UHGV virus genome: UHGV-1578451 | DNA length: 11,926 bases | Direction: 5' to 3' (one strand) | Source of the DNA: a virus | Part shown: positions 1 to 5,885 of the stretch, one piece after another | How the letters are laid out: each line of letters begins with the position of its first letter | Position numbering within the stretch: the stretch's first letter is position 1 | Made by a program: the position numbers and the translations under genes | The notes under the pieces: model-generated | What the model was told of the DNA's origin: nothing | Databases searched by the model: none | The model's input: only the letters and a program-made list of their open reading frames with translations

Positions 1-306
1 AATACTTCCTGGTGGGTGCCGCATTGTTGTGAAGTTCTTGTCGTGCCACGTTGAATGTGGCCACTGGCATTCAAACCGATTACTCAACCATTGCTCAAGG
101 GAAGGAAGCCCACCGGCACGCTGAATAACCCTCTCATTCTCGAAGACCTGACGCATTACCGGATCATTAGCCAGCGGCTGAATGGCTGCCGGAACAGCCC
201 CGGTACTGAATGACGCCATTTCTTCTGGTTCAGGCTCAAGCAGAACGCGACCACGCATGAAGAGGTGCATCAGTTCCGCACCTGGACGAAACAACACTAC
301 CCCCAT
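1..306 (-). CDS. hypothetical nin-region phage protein, first 102 codons only (gene runs off the left edge)
   Basis: Minus-strand frame is open from ATG 306-304 to position 1 with no stop (MGVVLFRPGAELMHLFMRGRVLLEPEPEEMASFSTGAVPAAIQPLANDPVMRQVFENERVIQRAGGLPSLEQWLSNRFECQWPHSTWHDKNFTTMRHPPGSI...). It sits directly downstream of ant in operon orientation. It is absent from the ORF table only because no stop falls inside the window. An in-frame TTG at 342-340 overlapping the ant stop is an alternative start. Family not recognised. Confidence 0.4.
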   Translation of the reverse strand, partial: MGVVLFRPGAELMHLFMRGRVLLEPEPEEMASFSTGAVPAAIQPLANDPVMRQVFENERVIQRAGGLPSLEQWLSNRFECQWPHSTWHDKNFTTMRHPPGSI

Positions 307-338
307 ACGAGGGGCTATTTCAGGTGTGAGTAATGCCC

Positions 339-1226
339 TCAATTGTCGCCACCAGCCAGTTCTTTATCGTGGGTGAAACTCCCGTTCCAGGTCACCTTCA
401 TCGGAAGCTTCCCTTTCAGATAGTTTTTGTAGATCCAGGTGGCCCCTTCCCGAAGCAGAACCGGCTGATAGGTGGTAAAGCTGACTGCTGAATTTGGAGA
501 GACTTTGCTGCTTTTCTCAGTGAGGTATTTATCACGCGCGTATGACCGGACACGCCATTGTGCGCTGCGTCCTTCCGGATTGTCGTCATATAACCAGTTC
601 ATCGAAACAAGCCAGGCGCTAATTTTTGAGGTATTAACGCCATTCAGACGTTTACAGAACTGTACTGGGGAAAGCCCATCAGTGAAGAGGCTCTCGAGAT
701 GCTCGATATATTCGGCTTGCTGGTGGGTAAGCGCCTCAGCTTGCTGCTTTGCCTCCATGGCATCCGCCCACGCACGCGCCAGGGTTATTGGATCAGACAT
801 ATTCGGCAGCATGACACCGTGGACCTCACGAAGATTGAAGTAATGATCTTCAAGCTGTTCAAAGAAGTCCCAGGCTAATTCGGTTTCAAGCATTTTTGCG
901 TGGCGGGAGGCGCCGCGCTCAGTCCAAAGATAAAGGCTGCGAGCCTTTGATGATATTTGCACACTGCTGAAAGAGTTGCGCAAATTTTCGACTTCATCAC
1001 CCTCAATTCGAAAGTAATGCTTACCCTCAACAAAACGTATTTTATTGCGGTTAAAGTTATTCGTGATGTTTTGCGCTGTTGTACCGTAGCCGCTTGCTAA
1101 AGATTCCGTAGTCACTACGCGCTGATTGCGATAAGTGATCACCGGCACCGATGAGTGATTAACGGAAATTACTGATGAAGTGCTATTTTTGGGCGTAGCA
1201 GTGCCCATAACATGATGATTGCTCAT
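339..1226 (-). CDS. ant: phage antirepressor (ORF6N-type N-terminal domain plus KilA-C/ANT-type C-terminal domain)
   Basis: ORF 339..1331 trimmed to the ATG at 1226, which is preceded by GGAGAG; the 35 codons upstream overlap rusA and look non-coding. N-terminal half carries an ORF6N-like signature (VITYRNQRVVTTESLA...NFNRNKIRFVEGKHYF...LYLWTERGA). C-terminal half (ITLARAWADAMEAKQQAEAL...KISAWLVSMNWLY) resembles the KilA-C/ANT domain. TGA stop at 339-341. Confidence 0.75.
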   Translation of the reverse strand: MSNHHVMGTATPKNSTSSVISVNHSSVPVITYRNQRVVTTESLASGYGTTAQNITNNFNRNKIRFVEGKHYFRIEGDEVENLRNSFSSVQISSKARSLYLWTERGASRHAKMLETELAWDFFEQLEDHYFNLREVHGVMLPNMSDPITLARAWADAMEAKQQAEALTHQQAEYIEHLESLFTDGLSPVQFCKRLNGVNTSKISAWLVSMNWLYDDNPEGRSAQWRVRSYARDKYLTEKSSKVSPNSAVSFTTYQPVLLREGATWIYKNYLKGKLPMKVTWNGSFTHDKELAGGDN

Positions 1227-1312
1227 ATTCTCTCCATACTCTGATTGTTGCGAAGGGCCTGCACGCCCTTTTCGCTTGCACTTTCCGACATTACTGCCAT
1301 AACGACCAATAT

Positions 1313-1711
1313 TCAACCCACAGCTGGACATATAACCACCTCTTTTTTATATGCCGTTATGGTTATCTCAACTTTTCCCTTCGGTACTATCGGTCCCCAT
1401 TCCACCAGCATTCGCTTAATCTGGCTGTCGTCTTCCCAGACACCCGCATGCGTCAGCGCGTCAAACAGGGCTTTGTTGTAATTATCGATATCCCGGCGGC
1501 GCGCATCCGGCGGGTACAGAGTGATTTCTACCGCTGCCAGTTCAGTCGATGGCTTCGGGAGACGTCGTAATTGCTCAATGATCGCCACGCAGGCAGCGCT
1601 CTGGTATTTACGACCATCAGCGCTAATGAGGTGACGACCGGCCAGCGGCCCCTTGTTAGGAGCGCGTCAGTAAGTGTTCACGCTGGGTGGAAATGGGAGT
1701 ATGAGCCTCAT
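1313..1711 (-). pseudogene. rusA: rusA-like Holliday-junction resolvase interrupted by an in-frame TGA at codon 15
   Basis: From ATG 1711-1709 (GGAGG 6 nt upstream) the frame reads MRLILPFPPSVNTY, then TGA at 1669-1667, then continues in the SAME frame as RAPNKGPLAGRHLISADGRKYQSAACVAIIEQL...PDARRRDIDNYNKALFDALTHAGVWEDDSQI...VEITITAYKK to the stop at 1313. Both sides of the TGA match the RusA family (E. coli RusA: ITLPWPPSNNRYYRHNRG...[31 protein letters not shown]), and the TGA sits where homologs have an aromatic residue (probably TGG Trp). The ORF table shows only the 91-aa GTG-1588 restart fragment (1313..1588). Confidence 0.65.
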
Positions 1712-1833
1712 TAAAAGCCTCCGTCATAATTCCTGAAACATACCTCAACTTTCCCGCTATAGTGACGAACACGTTGAACAACATCCGAAATAGGCGCTAT
1801 ACCGGCAGGGCGATAAAAGACTGTTTCACGCAT
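1711..1833 (-). CDS. small hypothetical protein (40 aa), translationally coupled between the methyltransferase gene and rusA
   Basis: ATG 1833-1831 overlaps the upstream stop (ATGCGTGA) and is preceded by AGGGGG at a 7-nt spacing. Encodes MRETVFYRPAGIAPISDVVQRVRHYSGKVEVCFRNYDGGF. Its TAA stop (1713-1711) shares one base with the rusA ATG (TAATG). Below the size cut-off of the ORF table; no homolog recognised. Confidence 0.3.
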   Translation of the reverse strand: MRETVFYRPAGIAPISDVVQRVRHYSGKVEVCFRNYDGGF

Positions 1834-3187
1834 GAGTTACCCCCTGCATGCTGTCGACAAGACCTTGCGCAATTGTGATAATTTCGCTGGTGGCCGTTCG
1901 TTCCAGCCAGAGTTGATTGATGTTGGCTTTCAGCTTGTTCTGCTGTGATTCATCCAGCATGTCAGCGCCGTCTACCTGGTCGAATACAATTCCAACCTCC
2001 AGCGGCCAGATACGGGACTCGGGAAGCGGATCCGCTACTGGTTTAGCTTTCTCACGGATGTGCATGCGGATCTGGCGAATATTGGACCAACTGGAAACAT
2101 CCAGGCTTCCCATAGCTGCAATGAAATCAGTACTGTTCATGCCATATTCACCAGATGCTTCAAGGGCAACAGTCCGAATACGTTCCGACATATCCAAGCG
2201 CGCAGCAGCGTCATCGAATTCAATCGACAACAGCCACTCATCCACACCGAACAAAATACTCTCACGAATAAGCAGCTTCGCTTTGTCGATCGTTAATGGT
2301 GATACCTGAGTGAATTCCGGTGCTTCGACAGAATCCGCCGCCCAGGTATGCCCAAACTTCGATTCACTGAATGTGTATTCTTCTTTATCGCCGAACGCAG
2401 CTCTAACGCATGCCCACGCCTCGACACCGCTGATATCAAAAATATCTTTCTGGGTAAGTGGCAACTCTGCTTCTGGCTTGTCAGCTACAGATGGTGTGAC
2501 AGTTGCAGGTTGAGACTTGCTGACAGCAAATTGCGCCAAAGTCATAAACGCCTGCCCTTTTGCCTCCAGTTCTGTACGGTTGATATAGCTGAACCGCTCA
2601 CCACGCCATGACTTATCAAATACAGCTATGGCACCGGCAAAAAACGCGCTGGTGGGCTTCTGTTTTTCGTCAGCCGGTATAAACCACACAGGCAGATCGA
2701 ACCCAATGCGCCCGCGAATGAATACAATGTGATCGGCATCTTCCGGCCACCACGTTTCACTCGGCGCGGCTTTTATCAGGAATACATAGCGACCGCCCTT
2801 CTCGCGCTGGTCTGCTGCGTACTTCATGATGTGCGTCATACCAGTGATCGCCTGTTTCTCGTGATACTGCGAACGGCTATACGGTGGGTTGCCATAACCA
2901 GCGCCACCCAGTTCTGTAAGACGTTCAGACCAGTCCTGCGTCAGCGCGTTATCTTCGGCGGTGTACCATGCCGGGCATTTCGCGTTGTCGTCGTCAGCAA
3001 ACAAGTCCAGAACTAATGGACCAAATAGCGCGTTGATCCCCCAAAAAAGCAGATCCGGTGTCCGCCACTGATCGCCAACTTCTTTCAATTCGTGAGCTGG
3101 TTTGCTACGCAGTGCCGCCAGCGCCTGGCAATATTTATTGGTATCATGAACGAAACCCCGAATTTTCTGGCAGTGAGTAATCAACAC
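1826..3187 (-). CDS. phage Dam-family N6-adenine DNA methyltransferase fused to an uncharacterised ~300-aa C-terminal domain
   Basis: Continuous minus-strand ORF with TGA stop at 1826-1828. Residues ~97-250 of the maximal ORF carry the phage Dam-family signature: DQWRTPDLLF, LDLFADDDNAKCPAWY, GNPPYS (NPPY catalytic motif), FLIKAAPSETWW, FIRGRIGF. The following ~300 residues (FDKSWRGERFSY...AQGLVDSMQGVTHA) match nothing I recognise. The maximal ORF starts at ATG 3361, but its first 58 codons overlap the 3' end of the O-like gene in another frame and look non-coding. I place the start at GTG 3187 (44-nt overlap with O); TTG 3088 is also possible. No candidate has a good Shine-Dalgarno sequence. 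Confidence 0.75.
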   Translation of the reverse strand: MLITHCQKIRGFVHDTNKYCQALAALRSKPAHELKEVGDQWRTPDLLFWGINALFGPLVLDLFADDDNAKCPAWYTAEDNALTQDWSERLTELGGAGYGNPPYSRSQYHEKQAITGMTHIMKYAADQREKGGRYVFLIKAAPSETWWPEDADHIVFIRGRIGFDLPVWFIPADEKQKPTSAFFAGAIAVFDKSWRGERFSYINRTELEAKGQAFMTLAQFAVSKSQPATVTPSVADKPEAELPLTQKDIFDISGVEAWACVRAAFGDKEEYTFSESKFGHTWAADSVEAPEFTQVSPLTIDKAKLLIRESILFGVDEWLLSIEFDDAAARLDMSERIRTVALEASGEYGMNSTDFIAAMGSLDVSSWSNIRQIRMHIREKAKPVADPLPESRIWPLEVGIVFDQVDGADMLDESQQNKLKANINQLWLERTATSEIITIAQGLVDSMQGVTHA

Positions 3188-4010
3188 TCTGGAAGTTTGC
3201 GCGGCTGGCTGAGTTAGTCTCCCATTTGCCGTTAACGCGTTCAGGCCGGCCAGCACTGGACCATTTGGTCGCGCTTTGCAGGTAACCAGGGAAGTTTTTT
3301 GGAATGAACAGAGTTGCCGGGCGGAGGTATTGCGCCTGCTCGCTATCACGCCAATCGGCATTTTTGTAATCCACTACCAGGCACAGGTCATCAACCGTGA
3401 ATTGTTCCCGAAGACGGGCGCGAATATTCTCCAGCGACGTACTGCATACCTGGTAGCGTGAGCCAGTTGTCTGGTTCAGGTAAGACAAGACCTGTCTGGC
3501 CTGATCAGTAATCACAACCTCAGGGTCTGGTTGCGCAGCAACCGGACAAGAGGGTTTTGAAGTTACTTGTGGATCTTGTTTTGATTTTACTGACGGATCC
3601 CCGCCAGATTCTGACGGGTCAAAACCACCGTTTTTGCCAGATTTCGACGGGTCAGTTTTTGAGGCGTCAAATTTTGATGCGTCAGATTTTGATGTGTCAG
3701 AATCTGACAGTTGAGAAAATGCGGCAGTCTGAAGTTTCGCCACATTCAGGCGATACACGTTCGAAGCATTACGGTTACCATTACGGCGCTGTGTACGCGT
3801 GAGCCAGCCATCTTTTTCAAGCTTTGCGATTGCCGTTCTGATAGTGCTCGGGCCCGCGCCAAGCTGGCGAGCAATAGTTTCAATTGACGGCCAGCACACA
3901 CCTTCATCGCTGCTGAAGTCAGCAAGGCGAGCCATGATCGCAACACTGGACAACTTCATGCCCGACGCTGCGCAACCATCCCATACGTAGCCGGTTAATT
4001 TAGTGCTCAT
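3144..4010 (-). CDS. replication initiation protein, O-like (N-terminal winged-helix DNA-binding domain, repeat linker, C-terminal phage replisome-organiser domain)
   Basis: ATG at 4010, TGA at 3144-3146, 288 aa. N-terminus (SSVAIMARLADFSSDEGVCWPSIETIARQLGAGPSTIRTAIAKLEKDGWLTR) is a winged-helix/HTH of the type seen in phage replication initiators. C-terminus (VITDQARQVLSYLNQTTGSRYQVCSTSLENIRARLREQFTVDDLCLVVDYKNADWRDSEQAQYLRPATLF) resembles the conserved phage replication-protein C-terminal domain. A low-complexity linker between them is encoded by the iteron-like repeats. Position after cro/cII matches lambdoid gene order. Confidence 0.8.
   Translation of the reverse strand: MSTKLTGYVWDGCAASGMKLSSVAIMARLADFSSDEGVCWPSIETIARQLGAGPSTIRTAIAKLEKDGWLTRTQRRNGNRNASNVYRLNVAKLQTAAFSQLSDSDTSKSDASKFDASKTDPSKSGKNGGFDPSESGGDPSVKSKQDPQVTSKPSCPVAAQPDPEVVITDQARQVLSYLNQTTGSRYQVCSTSLENIRARLREQFTVDDLCLVVDYKNADWRDSEQAQYLRPATLFIPKNFPGYLQSATKWSSAGRPERVNGKWETNSASRANFQSVDYSLPENSGFRS
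3585..3713. repeat. iteron-like array of ~15-bp direct repeats inside the O-like gene (putative phage replication origin)
   Basis: Plus-strand units: AGATTCTGACGGGTC (3606-3620), AGATTTCGACGGGTC (3639-3653), AGTTTTTGAGGCGTC (3654-3668), AAATTTTGATGCGTC (3669-3683), AGATTTTGATGTGTC (3684-3698), AGAATCTGACAGTTG (3699-3713), plus a degenerate copy at 3585-3599. An AT-richer stretch (3556-3590) follows in the direction of transcription. Lambda places its ori iterons in the same position, inside the O linker. Confidence 0.55.
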
Positions 4011-4019
4011 GATCGTCCG

Positions 4020-4346
4020 TTATCTCCCTGAACTTTTGCCTGAAATGCTCAAGTGGGCTGAAGCATTCGTGTGGATAGCCATCTCGCAGGTAGATAACGC
4101 GCTGTGTTTCTGGCTCCCAGCGGATAACACGGACTGGCACTCCGCGGTGATCTTTGAACCTTCGGTTAAGTTCGCGCACAGGCGTTTTGCCCTCCGGTTG
4201 TAGACCCCCACAATTGAAACCGCCCTACTGTGGTTACACGGAACCCAGCGGTTTGATAATCTGCGTTCATACCGAAACAACGGAGTACCCGAAACCGGGA
4301 TCATCCTGAGTTGCGGTAGACGGTTAAAAGCCGTTAAACTGTTCAT
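4020..4346 (-). CDS. doubtful small basic protein (108 aa) filling the gap between the CII-like and O-like genes
   Basis: ATG 4346-4344 lies 5 nt after the CII-like stop and the TAA at 4022-4020 lies 9 nt before the O-like ATG, so the ORF fits the operon exactly (MNSLTAFNRLPQLRMIPVSGTPLFRYERRLSNRWVPCNHSRAVSIVGV...). However 7 of 15 Arg codons are rare (AGG/AGA/CGG) and the composition is Ser/Arg-rich, as expected for a non-coding frame. Kept at low confidence. Confidence 0.2.
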   Translation of the reverse strand: MNSLTAFNRLPQLRMIPVSGTPLFRYERRLSNRWVPCNHSRAVSIVGVYNRRAKRLCANLTEGSKITAECQSVLSAGSQKHSALSTCEMAIHTNASAHLSISGKSSGR

Positions 4347-4351
4347 GCGGA

Positions 4352-4918
4352 TTATTTCTCCATACTCGAAGAGTTGTTCGCCAAGGCGCCCGGAGCTGCA
4401 CACTCGCGGGCGTCACTCTTTTCTGGCGCGCAGAAAACACGGAATAGCAGCGTCAAATGCTCCTGCCACTTAGCCATTACCTGATAACTGTTCTCTTCAA
4501 TCTGCTCACGTTCTGCCGGATCAATAACCCCGTCAGCGGTTGCCTTACGCAGGTACTGCGAGTGTTTACCAATCCATTCGATTGACTCCATCAGGCGCTG
4601 ATTGATATCGCCGTTATCAAGATCATCAACTTCCACCAGCGGAACGAAGACGCCTCCACTACGGCGGGCTATCGCATCGGTGACATACTTAGTACCGCTT
4701 GCATCCTGAAGCACCATCGCCCACTCAAGCGGGAAAATTTGATCACCTTCGTTACGCAGTCTGTTGTAGAGCGCATCCGTTGAGAGTTTTCCAGCGCGAT
4801 ACAGGCCAAGCCATTCAGCGGCTTCGGCATAACCGCCCGGCATTTCGGCAATCGTTCTTTTGATTGCCGCCACCAGCCAAGCCGATTGACGCTCTACCTT
4901 CCAGTGTTGTTTATCCAC
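4352..4918 (-). CDS. CII-like early regulatory protein (YdaT / phage CII CP76-like family)
   Basis: Immediately downstream of the cro-like gene on the same strand; TAA stop at 4352-4354. The region VAAIKRTIAEMPGGYAEAAEWLGLYRAGKLSTDALYNRLRNEG is reminiscent of YdaT-type proteins that follow YdaS-type Cro in Rac-like prophages. Start placed at GTG 4918, which is preceded by AAGGGG at a 6-nt spacing; the maximal ORF starts at TTG 4954, 8 nt after the cro stop and without a Shine-Dalgarno sequence. Confidence 0.65.
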   Translation of the reverse strand: MDKQHWKVERQSAWLVAAIKRTIAEMPGGYAEAAEWLGLYRAGKLSTDALYNRLRNEGDQIFPLEWAMVLQDASGTKYVTDAIARRSGGVFVPLVEVDDLDNGDINQRLMESIEWIGKHSQYLRKATADGVIDPAEREQIEENSYQVMAKWQEHLTLLFRVFCAPEKSDARECAAPGALANNSSSMEK

Positions 4919-4962
4919 GGTTAACCCCTTGATTCTGTGGTTACTTAAAATCAATTTGCGGT

Positions 4963-5157
4963 CTATTTTTTTTCATAAAGCTCAGGGTGAAAAACTAAGC
5001 CACCGCCAGTGCGATATGCCGCTTCAGCAGCCCGACCTTTCGGAATGAGGCGCCCAGGCCTATTGCGCCATTGGTAAACGGCTTCACTGGTAATGCCGAA
5101 AAATTCGGCAACTCTTTCGGCATTGCCAAAGTAATTTTCAATATCGTCAGTTGTCAT
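4963..5157 (-). CDS. cro: Cro-like HTH repressor (YdaS family), first gene of the early-right operon
   Basis: 64 aa, ATG 5157-5155 preceded by AGGAGG. Sequence NAERVAEFFGITSEAVYQWRNRPGRLIPKGRAAEAAYRTGGGLVFHPELY matches the YdaS-type Cro pattern (HTH followed by G-G..HPEL). Transcribed divergently from the CI-like repressor across an 86-bp operator region. Confidence 0.8.
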   Translation of the reverse strand: MTTDDIENYFGNAERVAEFFGITSEAVYQWRNRPGRLIPKGRAAEAAYRTGGGLVFHPELYEKK

Positions 5158-5243: not shown

Positions 5244-5885
5244 GTGAATGGTGCTTCAATGGAAACGGTTGGGCAGCGTATTAAGTCCCTCAGACTGATA
5301 ACTCGAACATCACAGAAAGAGCTTGGGAAGTTCTGCGGAGTGAGTGATGTTGCGGTTGGGTATTGGGAAAAAGATATAAATTTACCGGGTGGGGAATCAC
5401 TGGCGAAACTTGCAAAATTCTTCAATACATCAATTGATTACATCCTATATGGCACCGAATTTGAGGGTAACCTCATTACAAAAATGCGCAGGGTCCCTGT
5501 AATTTCATGGGTTCAAGCTGGTCAATTTACAGAATGTAAGGCTGCTGAAGTTTTCAATGAAGTGGATAAGTGGGTAGAAACGTCCTTAAGGGTTGGCGAT
5601 AGCTCATTCGCGCTGGAAGTTAAAGGGGACTCGATGACAAATCCTAACGGACTTCCCACTATTCCTGAAGGCGCAACCGTGATTGTAGATCCAGATGCAG
5701 AGCCATTTCATGGCAAAATTGTCGTGGCCAGAATAGATGGAACCAACGAAGCGACAGTAAAGAAACTCGTTATTGATGGCCCACAAAAATTTTTAGTCCC
5801 TCTAAATCCACGCTATCCCAACATCCCGATAAATGGTAACTGCCTGATCATCGGCGTCGTCAAAGGCGTTCAATACGAACTTTAA
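5244..5885 (+). CDS. cI: CI-type prophage repressor (N-terminal XRE-type HTH plus C-terminal S24 LexA-like autopeptidase domain)
   Basis: N-terminus QRIKSLRLITRTSQKELGKFCGVSDVAVGYWEKDINLPGGESLAKLAKFF is a classic HTH. C-terminus carries the S24 serine motif GDSM and the downstream Lys pair (VARIDGTNEATVKKL), and a candidate Ala-Gly cleavage site lies in VQAGQF. Divergent from cro. Start is either GTG 5244 or ATG 5259 (METVGQ...). Confidence 0.9.
   Translation: MNGASMETVGQRIKSLRLITRTSQKELGKFCGVSDVAVGYWEKDINLPGGESLAKLAKFFNTSIDYILYGTEFEGNLITKMRRVPVISWVQAGQFTECKAAEVFNEVDKWVETSLRVGDSSFALEVKGDSMTNPNGLPTIPEGATVIVDPDAEPFHGKIVVARIDGTNEATVKKLVIDGPQKFLVPLNPRYPNIPINGNCLIIGVVKGVQYEL

Follow-up and report, generated by a model that had tools for sequence, protein, structure and literature searches.

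Iterons placed inside the O or gene-18 gene are the rule among lambdoid phages (PMC8022706, PMC7466680). Stx phages such as 933W have six-iteron origins, and the repeats double as code for the initiator linker, so that changes in iteron number among relatives add or remove residues (PMC7466680). In P22 and phage L, gene 18 encodes distant O-type initiators with short imperfect repeats of their own in the coding region, which in phage L amount to six copies of an 11-bp unit (PMC8022706). A further arrangement, 'O-only', is found in 34 of 314 lambdoid phages and includes modules such as LLS, with an O homologue and neither helicase nor loader; none of these has been studied experimentally, and the paper that reports them defines no origin (PMC12315714).

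Here we analysed an 11.9-kb stretch of a virus genome, UHGV-1578451 (the window). From comparison of sequences across relatives, we conclude that an array of 15-bp repeats is probably the initiator-binding (iteron) half of a prophage replication origin, located within its own initiator gene where the linker is encoded. The predicted origin is a new example of a known, lambda-like arrangement, in a replicon type that is common and unstudied. The genes and domains concerned are the following.

3144..4010, minus strand: O-like replication initiator gene, 288 aa (ORF, Pfam and PHROG)
3720..4010, minus strand: N-terminal winged-helix DNA-binding domain, codons 1-97 (HTH_36, GntR and MarR-type matches, aa 23-89)
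3276..3491, minus strand: Phg_2220_C C-terminal domain (Pfam match, aa 174-245)
4000..4179, minus strand: small DUF4222 gene, overlapping the initiator start (Pfam 4e-17)

The initiator matches HTH_36 (8e-12, aa 23-70; 45.2 bits, cut-off 25) and then Phg_2220_C (1e-25; 89.7 bits, cut-off 27), both above gathering thresholds and in that order, and falls in the PHROG families 'replication initiation O-like' and 'primosomal protein'. Against solved structures, the N-terminal domain gave marginal MarR-type winged-helix matches only. An AlphaFold model, built from a shallow alignment of 81-99% identical sequences and with a mean pLDDT of 48, gives this domain a winged-helix-like H-H-H-H-E-E topology at low confidence and leaves the linker without predicted secondary structure (pLDDT ~30). 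We presume from these matches that the N-terminal domain reads the iterons and that Phg_2220_C is a recruitment module for host replication proteins. The DUF4222 gene accompanies the initiator in most annotated relatives, adjoining it in annotated E. coli chromosomes, in a circular phage-like element of Klebsiella and in prophage copies of the module on large Rahnella, Pantoea and Ewingella plasmids. The genes after the O-like gene are Dam, RusA and Ant, and Pfam and PHROG annotation of the neighbourhood gave no match to P, DnaC or a helicase family, DnaB-like families included. The initiator gene alone is identical to a copy in E. coli strain 1943, with flanks that are 90-98% identical.

The array lies on the coding (minus) strand of ORF 3144-4010, at codons ~101-137, between the HTH_36 and Phg_2220_C domains. 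Its elements, with the adjoining flank and the segment that encloses them, are listed here.

3697..3707: iteron core 1, TCAGAATCTGA, a perfect 11-bp palindrome
3682..3692: iteron core 2, plus strand TCAGATTTTGA, identical to a published K-12 SrsR box
3667..3677: iteron core 3, plus strand TCAAATTTTGA, identical to a published K-12 SrsR box
3652..3662: iteron core 4, plus strand TCAGTTTTTGA
3637..3647: iteron core 5, sense strand TCGAAATCTGG, degenerate
3615..3636: A-tract/T-tract spacer between units 5 and 6, with an internal inverted repeat, sense strand GGCAAAAACGGTGGTTTTGACCC, moderately conserved
3604..3614: iteron core 6, sense strand TCAGAATCTGG, 33 bp from unit 5, the best-conserved copy in the family
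3554..3599: AT-rich flank of two 24-bp direct repeats, each opening with GATCC on the sense strand (repeat search)
3546..3709: full segment under nucleotide-level constraint, ~165 bp, the proposed ori core (synonymous-codon entropy)

Five 15-bp units are contiguous and a sixth stands 33 bp away, the whole spanning 3600-3709. A repeat search placed the six in-register copies at 3602, 3635, 3650, 3665, 3680 and 3695 (spacings 33, 15, 15, 15 and 15), and Tandem Repeats Finder reported 3638-3701 with a period of 15, 4.3 copies and 81% matches. Scanning the 11.9-kb window for TCARAWTYTGR with at most one mismatch returned six sites, all within 3604-3707, against a chance expectation of ~3.5 strand-hits across the whole window. 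A weight matrix drawn from 471 copies in 84 genes resolves a conserved core, C-R-TCA-R-A-W-TCTG-R-C, and a low-information spacer between cores; the block TTTGACCCGTCAGAATCTGG around core 6 is near-invariant across 82 genes. Half-site centres are 6 or 9 bp apart, which leaves the half-site geometry ambiguous. With a period of five codons, this DNA doubles as code for a disordered Ser/Asp/Lys linker, in a segment rich in Ser, Asp, Lys and Pro.

The original prediction was right that 15-bp repeats are present, as the repeat search, Tandem Repeats Finder and the pattern scan agree, that they lie within the initiator linker, and that they encode a repetitive linker peptide (...LSDSDTSKSDASKFDASKTDPSKSGKNGGFDPSESGG... 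on the coding strand). Its 'six to seven tandem' copies are in fact five contiguous and one displaced. Of the interval it assigned to the array, 3585-3713, the part holding units is 3600-3709, and 3585-3599 belongs to a different, GATC-containing repeat. It also placed a variable 'centre', GAYGNGTC, within the unit and supposed that this might grade initiator affinity; the register was off, the variable bases in the 471-copy matrix being the spacer between cores, and the proposal of graded affinity loses its basis with it.

The flank at 3554-3599 is moderately AT-rich (GC 35%), and the 40-bp stretch 3555-3594 is among the 1.5% least stable of the 11.9-kb window. It holds GATC sites at 3572-3575 and 3596-3599, and nearly all relatives have 2-3 copies of GATCC(G/A)TCA. 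We regard the flank as a candidate DNA-unwinding and Dam/SeqA-sensitive element. A promoter and terminator scan found no terminators and a single, weak promoter-like match, which lies inside the array.

Several features are common to this locus and to the origins of lambda and 933W: repeated initiator sites inside the initiator gene, past the N-terminal DNA-binding domain; repeats that double as linker code and vary in number between relatives; an AT-rich region 3' of the iterons, in the order iterons then flank; and a gene located in a pR-type early operon after cro and cII. Lambda has four 18-19-bp iterons at a spacing of 20-24 bp, whereas the window has 11-bp cores at a spacing of 15 bp, five plus one; the window module has no P gene, and its flank carries GATC repeats. 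The N-terminal domains belong to different Pfam families, HTH_36 in the window and PF04492 in lambda O. The PF04492 (Phage_rep_O) profile found no match in the window initiator at E <= 0.01, and lambda O itself scores 6e-36. Direct sequence homology to lambda O was considered and rejected (hhalign probability 0.5% with a 7-sequence N-terminal profile; BLASTP not significant). Thus, the link to lambda rests on architecture, on the chimeric initiator of phage SfII described below and on a published HHpred result in which lambda O itself is HTH_36 plus Phg_2220_C (PMC5509034). The likeness to P22 and phage L extends to how their predicted origins were derived, which was from sequence, as here; they differ in repeat sequence and initiator subfamily, and in encoding a DnaB-type helicase (gp12). 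The likeness to O-only modules is one of gene content.

Theta-plasmid iteron origins of the Rep_3/RepA type also consist of tandem initiator sites adjoining an AT-rich, GATC-containing region, and oriC and P1 oriR have GATC-rich unwinding elements. Plasmid iterons are typically 17-22 bp long, intergenic and phased at ~22 bp, with DnaA boxes alongside. The window array likewise combines tandem sites with an AT-rich GATC flank, but we rejected a plasmid-type (RepA/Rep_3) origin, as the period is 15 bp and DnaA-box matches are at chance level, with none within the segment. Fusions of Phg_2220_C to Rep_3 initiators are also known from lactococcal theta plasmids (PMC4490491).

To compare selection on the DNA and on the protein, we used 84 distinct initiator genes from many Enterobacterales genera. 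Normalised synonymous-codon entropy falls to about zero at codons ~104-155, against a median of 0.88 at codons 2-97, where synonymous sites are saturated. The median over linker codons 104-162 is 0.07 (35 columns), compared with 0.88 over the N-terminal domain (70 columns; Mann-Whitney p = 1.6e-14). The amino acids follow the opposite pattern: the mean majority-residue fraction is 0.68 in the linker and 0.83 in the N-terminal domain, so the linker is the more variable. Codon choice depends on position, with Asp encoded by GAC inside iterons and by GAT in the GATC repeats in 84 of 84 genes, and Ser at core positions encoded by TCA in 77 of 77. All but one of the 471 motif copies (470) fall within gene nucleotides 250-500, and two copies, in phiP27 and L085, stand in another reading frame. 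Comparison of iteron number across relatives, which had been suggested as a check, gave mostly 5-7 copies per gene (range 1-11), and proteins that share 92-98% identity differ in copy number by exact multiples of 15 bp. Judged by these synonymous sites, strong purifying selection acts on the array nucleotides, and the encoded peptide does not account for it. Relatives of lambda O were intended as a positive control for the method; the IMG/VR scan gave just 99-100% identical copies.

The array is tied to one part of the initiator. An unbiased scan of IMG/VR for the DNA pattern alone returned 120 loci, each with a homologue of the N-terminal domain immediately upstream (120/120) and with 297-393 nt separating the array from the gene start. 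The C-terminal domain is Phg_2220_C-type in 56 of 80 genomic loci and SfII-type in 22; in other words, the N-terminal domain and array stay together while C-terminal domains are exchanged. The SfII initiator shares its N-terminal domain and array with the window gene and has a C-terminal domain homologous to that of lambda O (E 7e-26), and similarity to SfII-type genes stops at window position 3525, just after the constrained block.

Repeat type changes with the N-terminal domain. Copy number is 4-11 in proteins bearing the signature GAGxSTVRTAI...GNRNASN. Repeats are of the GTTCAGATTCTGAAC type in the 'STVITAI' group and of the form TCAA-N3-TTGA in the 'AKSxxTV' group, and the 24B/SI5 group, ~37% identical over the N-terminal domain (40% by local tblastn), carries GGGGCAGGAGCTG repeats in the corresponding place. 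Distinct repeat types thus occupy the equivalent position in at least four N-terminal subfamilies, and types differ among phages that share a host genus, as in Klebsiella ('AKSxxTV') and E. coli (24B). The N-terminal domain and array occur in 1848 of 5426 complete E. coli genomes, and the module is also present in the functional phages SfII, SfIV and phiNP, in a phiP27 gene and in prophages of many Enterobacterales genera. In a plasmid collection, matches were mostly prophages in large replicons, and one 44-kb circular Klebsiella element is a phage that carries the module.

One relative of this array already has a described DNA-binding protein. In E. coli K-12, the strongest genomic-SELEX peak of the LysR-type regulator SrsR (YgfI) is the yfdO/yfdP spacer of the cryptic prophage CPS-53, where a DNase I footprint protects 66 bp containing four 11-bp boxes (TCAaATTTTGa, TCAGATTTTGa, TCAGATTTTGa and TCAGAgTcTGa), and changes in SrsR level alter yfdO and yfdK mRNA (PMC9181523). 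We found the boxes to be homologous to the 15-bp array, lying in a copy of the window initiator gene family that is truncated at its 5' end. Both sets consist of 11-bp boxes at 15-bp spacing in homologous DNA; the published account treats the CPS-53 boxes as an intergenic operator for a transcription factor, whereas the window array is inside an intact ORF. Because the DNA-binding domain of the initiator is deleted in K-12, an iteron reading was never considered there. The strongest K-12 SrsR target appears to consist of relic iterons, left from a prophage origin that is now dead.

Could the array be primarily an operator for host SrsR, controlling an internal or nearby promoter and having no part in replication? 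SrsR is the only factor shown experimentally to bind homologous boxes, in the K-12 remnant, with SELEX, footprint and mRNA effects all found there (PMC9181523). Its operator pattern (TCAGATTTTGC/a) matches multiple 11-bp boxes in the window, two of which (3667-3677 and 3682-3692) have exact K-12 counterparts, and the weak promoter-like match falls in the array. We nevertheless consider an exclusively regulatory role quite unlikely. In intact genes the array is coding region and not promoter spacer, it is never found apart from the N-terminal domain in the 120 viral contigs, and the repeats track that phage domain and not the host, differing within a single host genus or species. Phages of Providencia, Proteus, Yersinia, Rahnella and Tatumella retain the motif core as well, in hosts that may or may not encode SrsR. 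Control by SrsR would fit with an origin as an extra layer on it, not as a substitute.

The remaining explanations concern how conserved repeats might arise without a DNA-binding protein. Frequent homologous recombination between lambdoid phages could keep a module boundary identical, and the exchange of C-terminal domains at a junction that lies right past the constrained block (3525) is what such a process would leave. Counter to this, homogenisation would erase amino-acid variation too, yet the linker is more variable than the N-terminal domain; conservation is periodic, with high-information cores and free spacers; and repeats change with the N-terminal subfamily. As the whole explanation this is very unlikely, and recombination at the boundary may contribute to conservation across 3525-3600. 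That slippage produced a low-complexity peptide linker whose DNA has no function would account for the five-codon period, the unstructured composition and the change in copy number by whole units. It is hardly credible given synonymous sites that are almost invariant where amino acids vary, position-specific codons, out-of-frame motif copies and the clustering of all six sites in one place. Equally far-fetched is constraint from an overlapping gene or a structured RNA. Two window ORFs, 3557-3802 (plus) and 3587-3745 (minus), do overlap the array, and its single strands fold better than shuffled sequence (z = -3.2 and -4.3). However, any alternative frame is open across the segment in at most 32 of the 84 relatives, Rfam has no match in the window, and the extra foldability follows automatically from quasi-palindromic repeats.

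We therefore return to the lambda-like origin of the original prediction, which is well supported by the position of the array, selection on the DNA, linkage to the N-terminal domain, co-variation of repeats, the AT-rich flank and the SfII chimera, all of them features of sequence. By analogy with ori-lambda, transcription of an early-right operon (cro, a cII-like gene, DUF4222 and the O-like gene) would supply the O-like protein, whose winged-helix domain would bind the partly palindromic 11-bp cores, TCA-R-A-W-TCTG-R. Five cores at 15-bp spacing and the conserved distal copy could then assemble a multi-protein complex on 3600-3709 that strains and opens the adjoining AT-rich DNA at 3554-3599. 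This flank may respond to Dam methylation and SeqA because of its two GATC-containing 24-bp repeats. Phg_2220_C would recruit the host helicase or primosome, either directly or via host factors, as P, DnaC and helicase genes are absent. With no helicase loader encoded, the downstream steps are without precedent (PMC12315714). A literature search for an origin in SfII, SfIV or the O subfamily of the window found none, and PMC8044961 makes no mention of iterons or P27.

The synonymous-site test is a general and reusable way to find origins hidden in coding sequence, and the relic-iteron view of the CPS-53 peak affects how the SrsR regulon should be read. We also considered dual use, in which the array serves both as iterons of a loader-less O-only lambdoid replicon and as the highest-affinity genomic target of SrsR. 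This is speculative and, we think, rather unlikely. If true, SrsR, a regulator of stationary phase and oxidative stress, would gate prophage replication initiation or be recruited for it, in a family of prophages that roughly one in three complete E. coli genomes carries, and the peak in the K-12 'SrsR regulon' would be the fossil of an interaction between SrsR and an origin. For the replicon type itself, the proposed origin with its cis/trans pair can be tested, and a loader-less module with a defined ori would be an entry point for understanding how such phages load DnaB.

Tandem Repeats Finder recovers the 15-bp repeats in the linker-coding part of the O-like initiator gene (3638-3701, period 15, 4.3 copies). 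A repeat search of the window resolves six in-register copies with spacings of 33, 15, 15, 15 and 15, that is, five contiguous units and one displaced unit instead of the six to seven tandem copies of the original prediction. The motif TCARAWTYTGR, allowing one mismatch, occurs at six sites, all within 3604-3707, and has no match elsewhere in the 11.9-kb window. The span first proposed, 3585-3713, holds the array, but 3585-3599 is part of a second, different repeat. The encoded peptide is as originally quoted. Residues 101-160 have no secondary structure and a pLDDT of about 30 in a low-confidence AlphaFold model, consistent with a linker.

The O-like gene is placed within the lambdoid early region of the window:

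1826-3361, minus strand: Dam methylase ORF
3144-4010, minus strand: O-like initiator gene (288 aa), with the array on its coding strand
4000-4179, minus strand: DUF4222 gene (59 aa), sharing 11 nt with the start of the O-like gene
4352-4954, minus strand: cII-like gene
4963-5157, minus strand: cro
5244-5885, plus strand: cI-like repressor

Pfam places an HTH_36 winged-helix domain at aa 23-70 of the O-like protein, with weaker N-terminal matches to GntR, MarR, DnaD_N and RepC-N, and a C-terminal Phg_2220_C domain at aa 174-245; the PHROGs families are 'replication initiation O-like' and 'primosomal protein'. RusA and antirepressor (Ant) genes also lie downstream of the initiator, and between it and these genes or the Dam ORF no P, DnaC or helicase gene was found (window 1-4010). 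This makes the replication module 'O-only', in line with a described class: among 314 lambdoid phages, 34 carry an O homologue but neither helicase nor loader, and none of the 34 has been studied (PMC12315714).

Against E. coli strain 1943, the O gene alone is 100% identical, with 90-98% identity in the flanks; the window therefore derives from a mosaic relative. The DUF4222 gene accompanies the initiator in annotated E. coli chromosomes, in a Klebsiella circular phage-like element and in prophage module copies on large Rahnella, Pantoea and Ewingella plasmids; its product could serve as an accessory replication factor where the module provides no helicase loader. A 127-aa ORF (4020-4403, minus strand; PHROG 1170, unknown function; equivalent to SfII_40) overlaps the DUF4222 ORF in another frame, and the strain 1943 annotation holds just one of the two. 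At 3142-3147, where the Dam ATG overlaps the O stop codon, the window has one base fewer than strain 1943 just after that ATG (ATGAT-ACC versus ATGATGACC). Because of this missing base, the annotated Dam start does not share the frame of the Dam-domain ORF (1826-3361). A TTG at 3088 is the next in-frame candidate; the gene may be a pseudogene or start elsewhere, or sequencing may have introduced an error.

To compare the gene across relatives, we assembled 80 genomic loci spanning many Enterobacterales genera, with N-terminal domains 59-100% identical to the window's, and added phage copies from SfII, phiNP, YeP1, phiP27, Kp4866-6 and ST101-KPC2phi6.3; the codon alignment comprises 84 distinct genes. 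In the N-terminal domain synonymous-codon entropy approaches its maximum (median 0.88, 70 columns); it falls to a median of 0.07 over codons 104-162 (35 columns; Mann-Whitney p = 1.6e-14), most clearly up to about codon 155, and is back to about 0.8 past codon 168. Within the low-entropy stretch serine is TCA in 77 of 77 genes, and Lys is AAA, Val GTA, Phe TTT, Glu GAA and Cys TGT in every gene with the residue. Aspartate codons are position-specific, GAC in the repeats and GAT at 'DP' positions in 84/84 genes, where they give GATC sites. Selection acts on the DNA and not on the peptide alone.

The linker amino acids vary more than those of the N-terminal domain (majority-residue fraction 0.68 versus 0.83), and neither a recent sweep nor ordinary codon bias can account for low synonymous entropy alongside greater amino-acid variation. 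A pure peptide linker is likewise excluded by synonymous-site constraint where amino acids vary. An overlapping gene is unlikely to lie behind the constraint, since each alternative frame is open in at most 32 of the 84 relatives. Recombination at the module junction could, by homogenising sequences, help to conserve 3525-3600, but leaves unexplained both the periodic core/spacer pattern and the excess amino-acid variation. Rfam gave no match, and DnaA boxes occur at chance level. The array's single strands are more foldable than shuffled sequences (z = -3.2 and -4.3), an automatic consequence of quasi-palindromic repeats.

A weight matrix refined on the 84 genes finds 471 motif copies, 470 of them inside gene nt 250-500. 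Comparing iteron number across relatives, as originally suggested, gives 5-7 copies in most genes (range 1-11). The positions C-R-TCA-R-A-W-TCTG-R-C carry high information and a 4-nt spacer little, and within the core the third codon position is conserved to the same degree as the other two. The core is partly palindromic; the copy at 3697-3707 is a perfect palindrome, TCAGAATCTGA. The bases first read as a variable centre of each copy are spacers between cores, and the graded affinity attributed to them is therefore unsupported. With copy count and register thus corrected, the repeat observation is confirmed. In phiP27 and one further relative (L085), two motif copies are out of frame with neighbouring copies, and proteins 92-98% identical differ by exact five-residue units. 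In SfII (L002 3113-3174) and phiNP (L003 3229-3293) a 30-bp period scores above 15 bp (87-88% matches). Since their spacer codons alternate between GCA and CCG, sites in these phages may be organised as pairs about three helical turns apart.

The array adjoins a flank at 3554-3599 with 35% GC, where some 40-bp segments rank within the least stable 1.5% of the window:

3554-3575 and 3578-3599: two 24-bp flank repeats, each beginning GATCC on the sense strand
3572-3575 and 3596-3599: GATC sites within the flank repeats

Two to three copies of GATCC(G/A)TCA at 24-nt spacing are kept in nearly all relatives, even where the iterons have changed. At least 31 of the 80 loci have a phage Dam methylase gene after the initiator. 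Together with the invariant aspartate GAT, these conserved repeats and the adjacent Dam gene suggest methylation-sensitive origin control.

The array is linked to one domain of the initiator. A DNA-only pattern of two adjacent cores retrieved 120 IMG/VR loci; an N-terminal domain homologue lies immediately upstream in 120/120, and the array is located 297-393 nt into the gene. C-terminal domains are exchanged (Phg_2220_C type in 56 and SfII type in 22 of the 80 genomic loci). A C-terminal tail, ...VDYSLPENSGFRS, ending GFR[G/S] and encoded by the last 13 codons of the O-like gene (3144-3185), occurs in 35/89 genes and is common to the unrelated Phg_2220_C and lambda-O types; it may be a short docking motif. 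Repeat type goes with the N-terminal signature, at the same position in the gene:

GAGxSTVRTAI...GNRNASN group: 4-11 copies of the main motif
'STVITAI' group: GTTCAGATTCTGAAC-type repeats
'AKSxxTV' group: TCAA-N3-TTGA repeats
24B/SI5 group: GGGGCAGGAGCTG repeats; N-terminal domain about 37% identical (40% in a local tblastn match)

Kp4866-6 and ST101-KPC2phi6.3 both infect Klebsiella and have different repeat types; E. coli likewise hosts both phage 24B and window-type copies. Because repeat types differ among phages of one host genus, the specificity partner would seem to be a phage protein rather than a host factor.

A host protein does bind a homologous array. The strongest genomic-SELEX peak of SrsR (YgfI, a LysR-type regulator) in E. 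coli K-12 is the 'yfdO/yfdP spacer' of CPS-53, a cryptic prophage, where DNase I footprinting showed 66 bp protected, with four 11-bp boxes (TCAaATTTTGa, TCAGATTTTGa, TCAGATTTTGa, TCAGAgTcTGa); with the host protein tested, the site was read as a promoter operator (PMC9181523). This locus is a 5'-truncated copy of the O-like gene with the winged-helix domain deleted. Its boxes (L091 2604-2681) are the homologous 15-bp repeats (window 3637-3707), two window cores being identical to K-12 boxes, and the peak therefore looks like a relic phage origin. The footprint establishes strong protein binding to the array. Co-variation and linkage favour the phage initiator as its primary reader; SrsR may bind as an added layer, or simply because four quasi-palindromes lie side by side.

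The window protein has no direct sequence similarity to lambda O, whose N-terminal domain is PF04492 in Pfam rather than HTH_36. By HHpred, lambda O was reported to have the architecture HTH_36 + Phg_2220_C (Brezellec et al., PMC5509034). SfII O joins the N-terminal domain and array found in the window to a C-terminal domain homologous to lambda O's (E 7e-26), and the N-terminal-plus-array module thus fills the place of lambda's origin-binding module. Iterons precede an AT-rich region along the gene in both lambda and the window. P22 and phage L each have a distant O-type protein with its own repeats inside its gene (Casjens and co-workers, PMC8022706), the same general pattern. Immediately to the right of lambda's AT-rich region, CGTCAGAGAATTCTGGCGAATCC (L090 850-885) resembles the window's most conserved block (3596-3620, CGTCAGAATCTGGCGGGGATCC), a likeness that could be fortuitous or mark an origin element common to both. 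The Klebsiella quasipneumoniae record NZ_CP084811.1 (44,270 bp, circular), labelled a 'plasmid', represents an entire lambdoid phage genome whose genes keep the same order (DUF4222, O-like, Dam, Dcm, DUF968, Q), which suggests that the module supports an extrachromosomal circular form.

Comparative evidence supports a predicted origin inside the initiator gene: by sequence analysis the array is nucleotide-constrained, clustered and partly palindromic, is linked to a single DNA-binding domain with which it co-varies, and adjoins an AT-rich, GATC-bearing flank. By analogy with ori-lambda, the N-terminal domain would bind the cores and assemble a nucleoprotein complex, the AT-rich flank would melt, and the C-terminal domain would recruit host replication proteins; the helicase-loading step is without precedent. 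The kind of arrangement is ordinary, origins within initiator genes being already known. The replicon itself is very common (1848 of 5426 complete E. coli genomes), it belongs to the hitherto unstudied O-only class, and the host regulator SrsR has its published top target in the relic K-12 copy.
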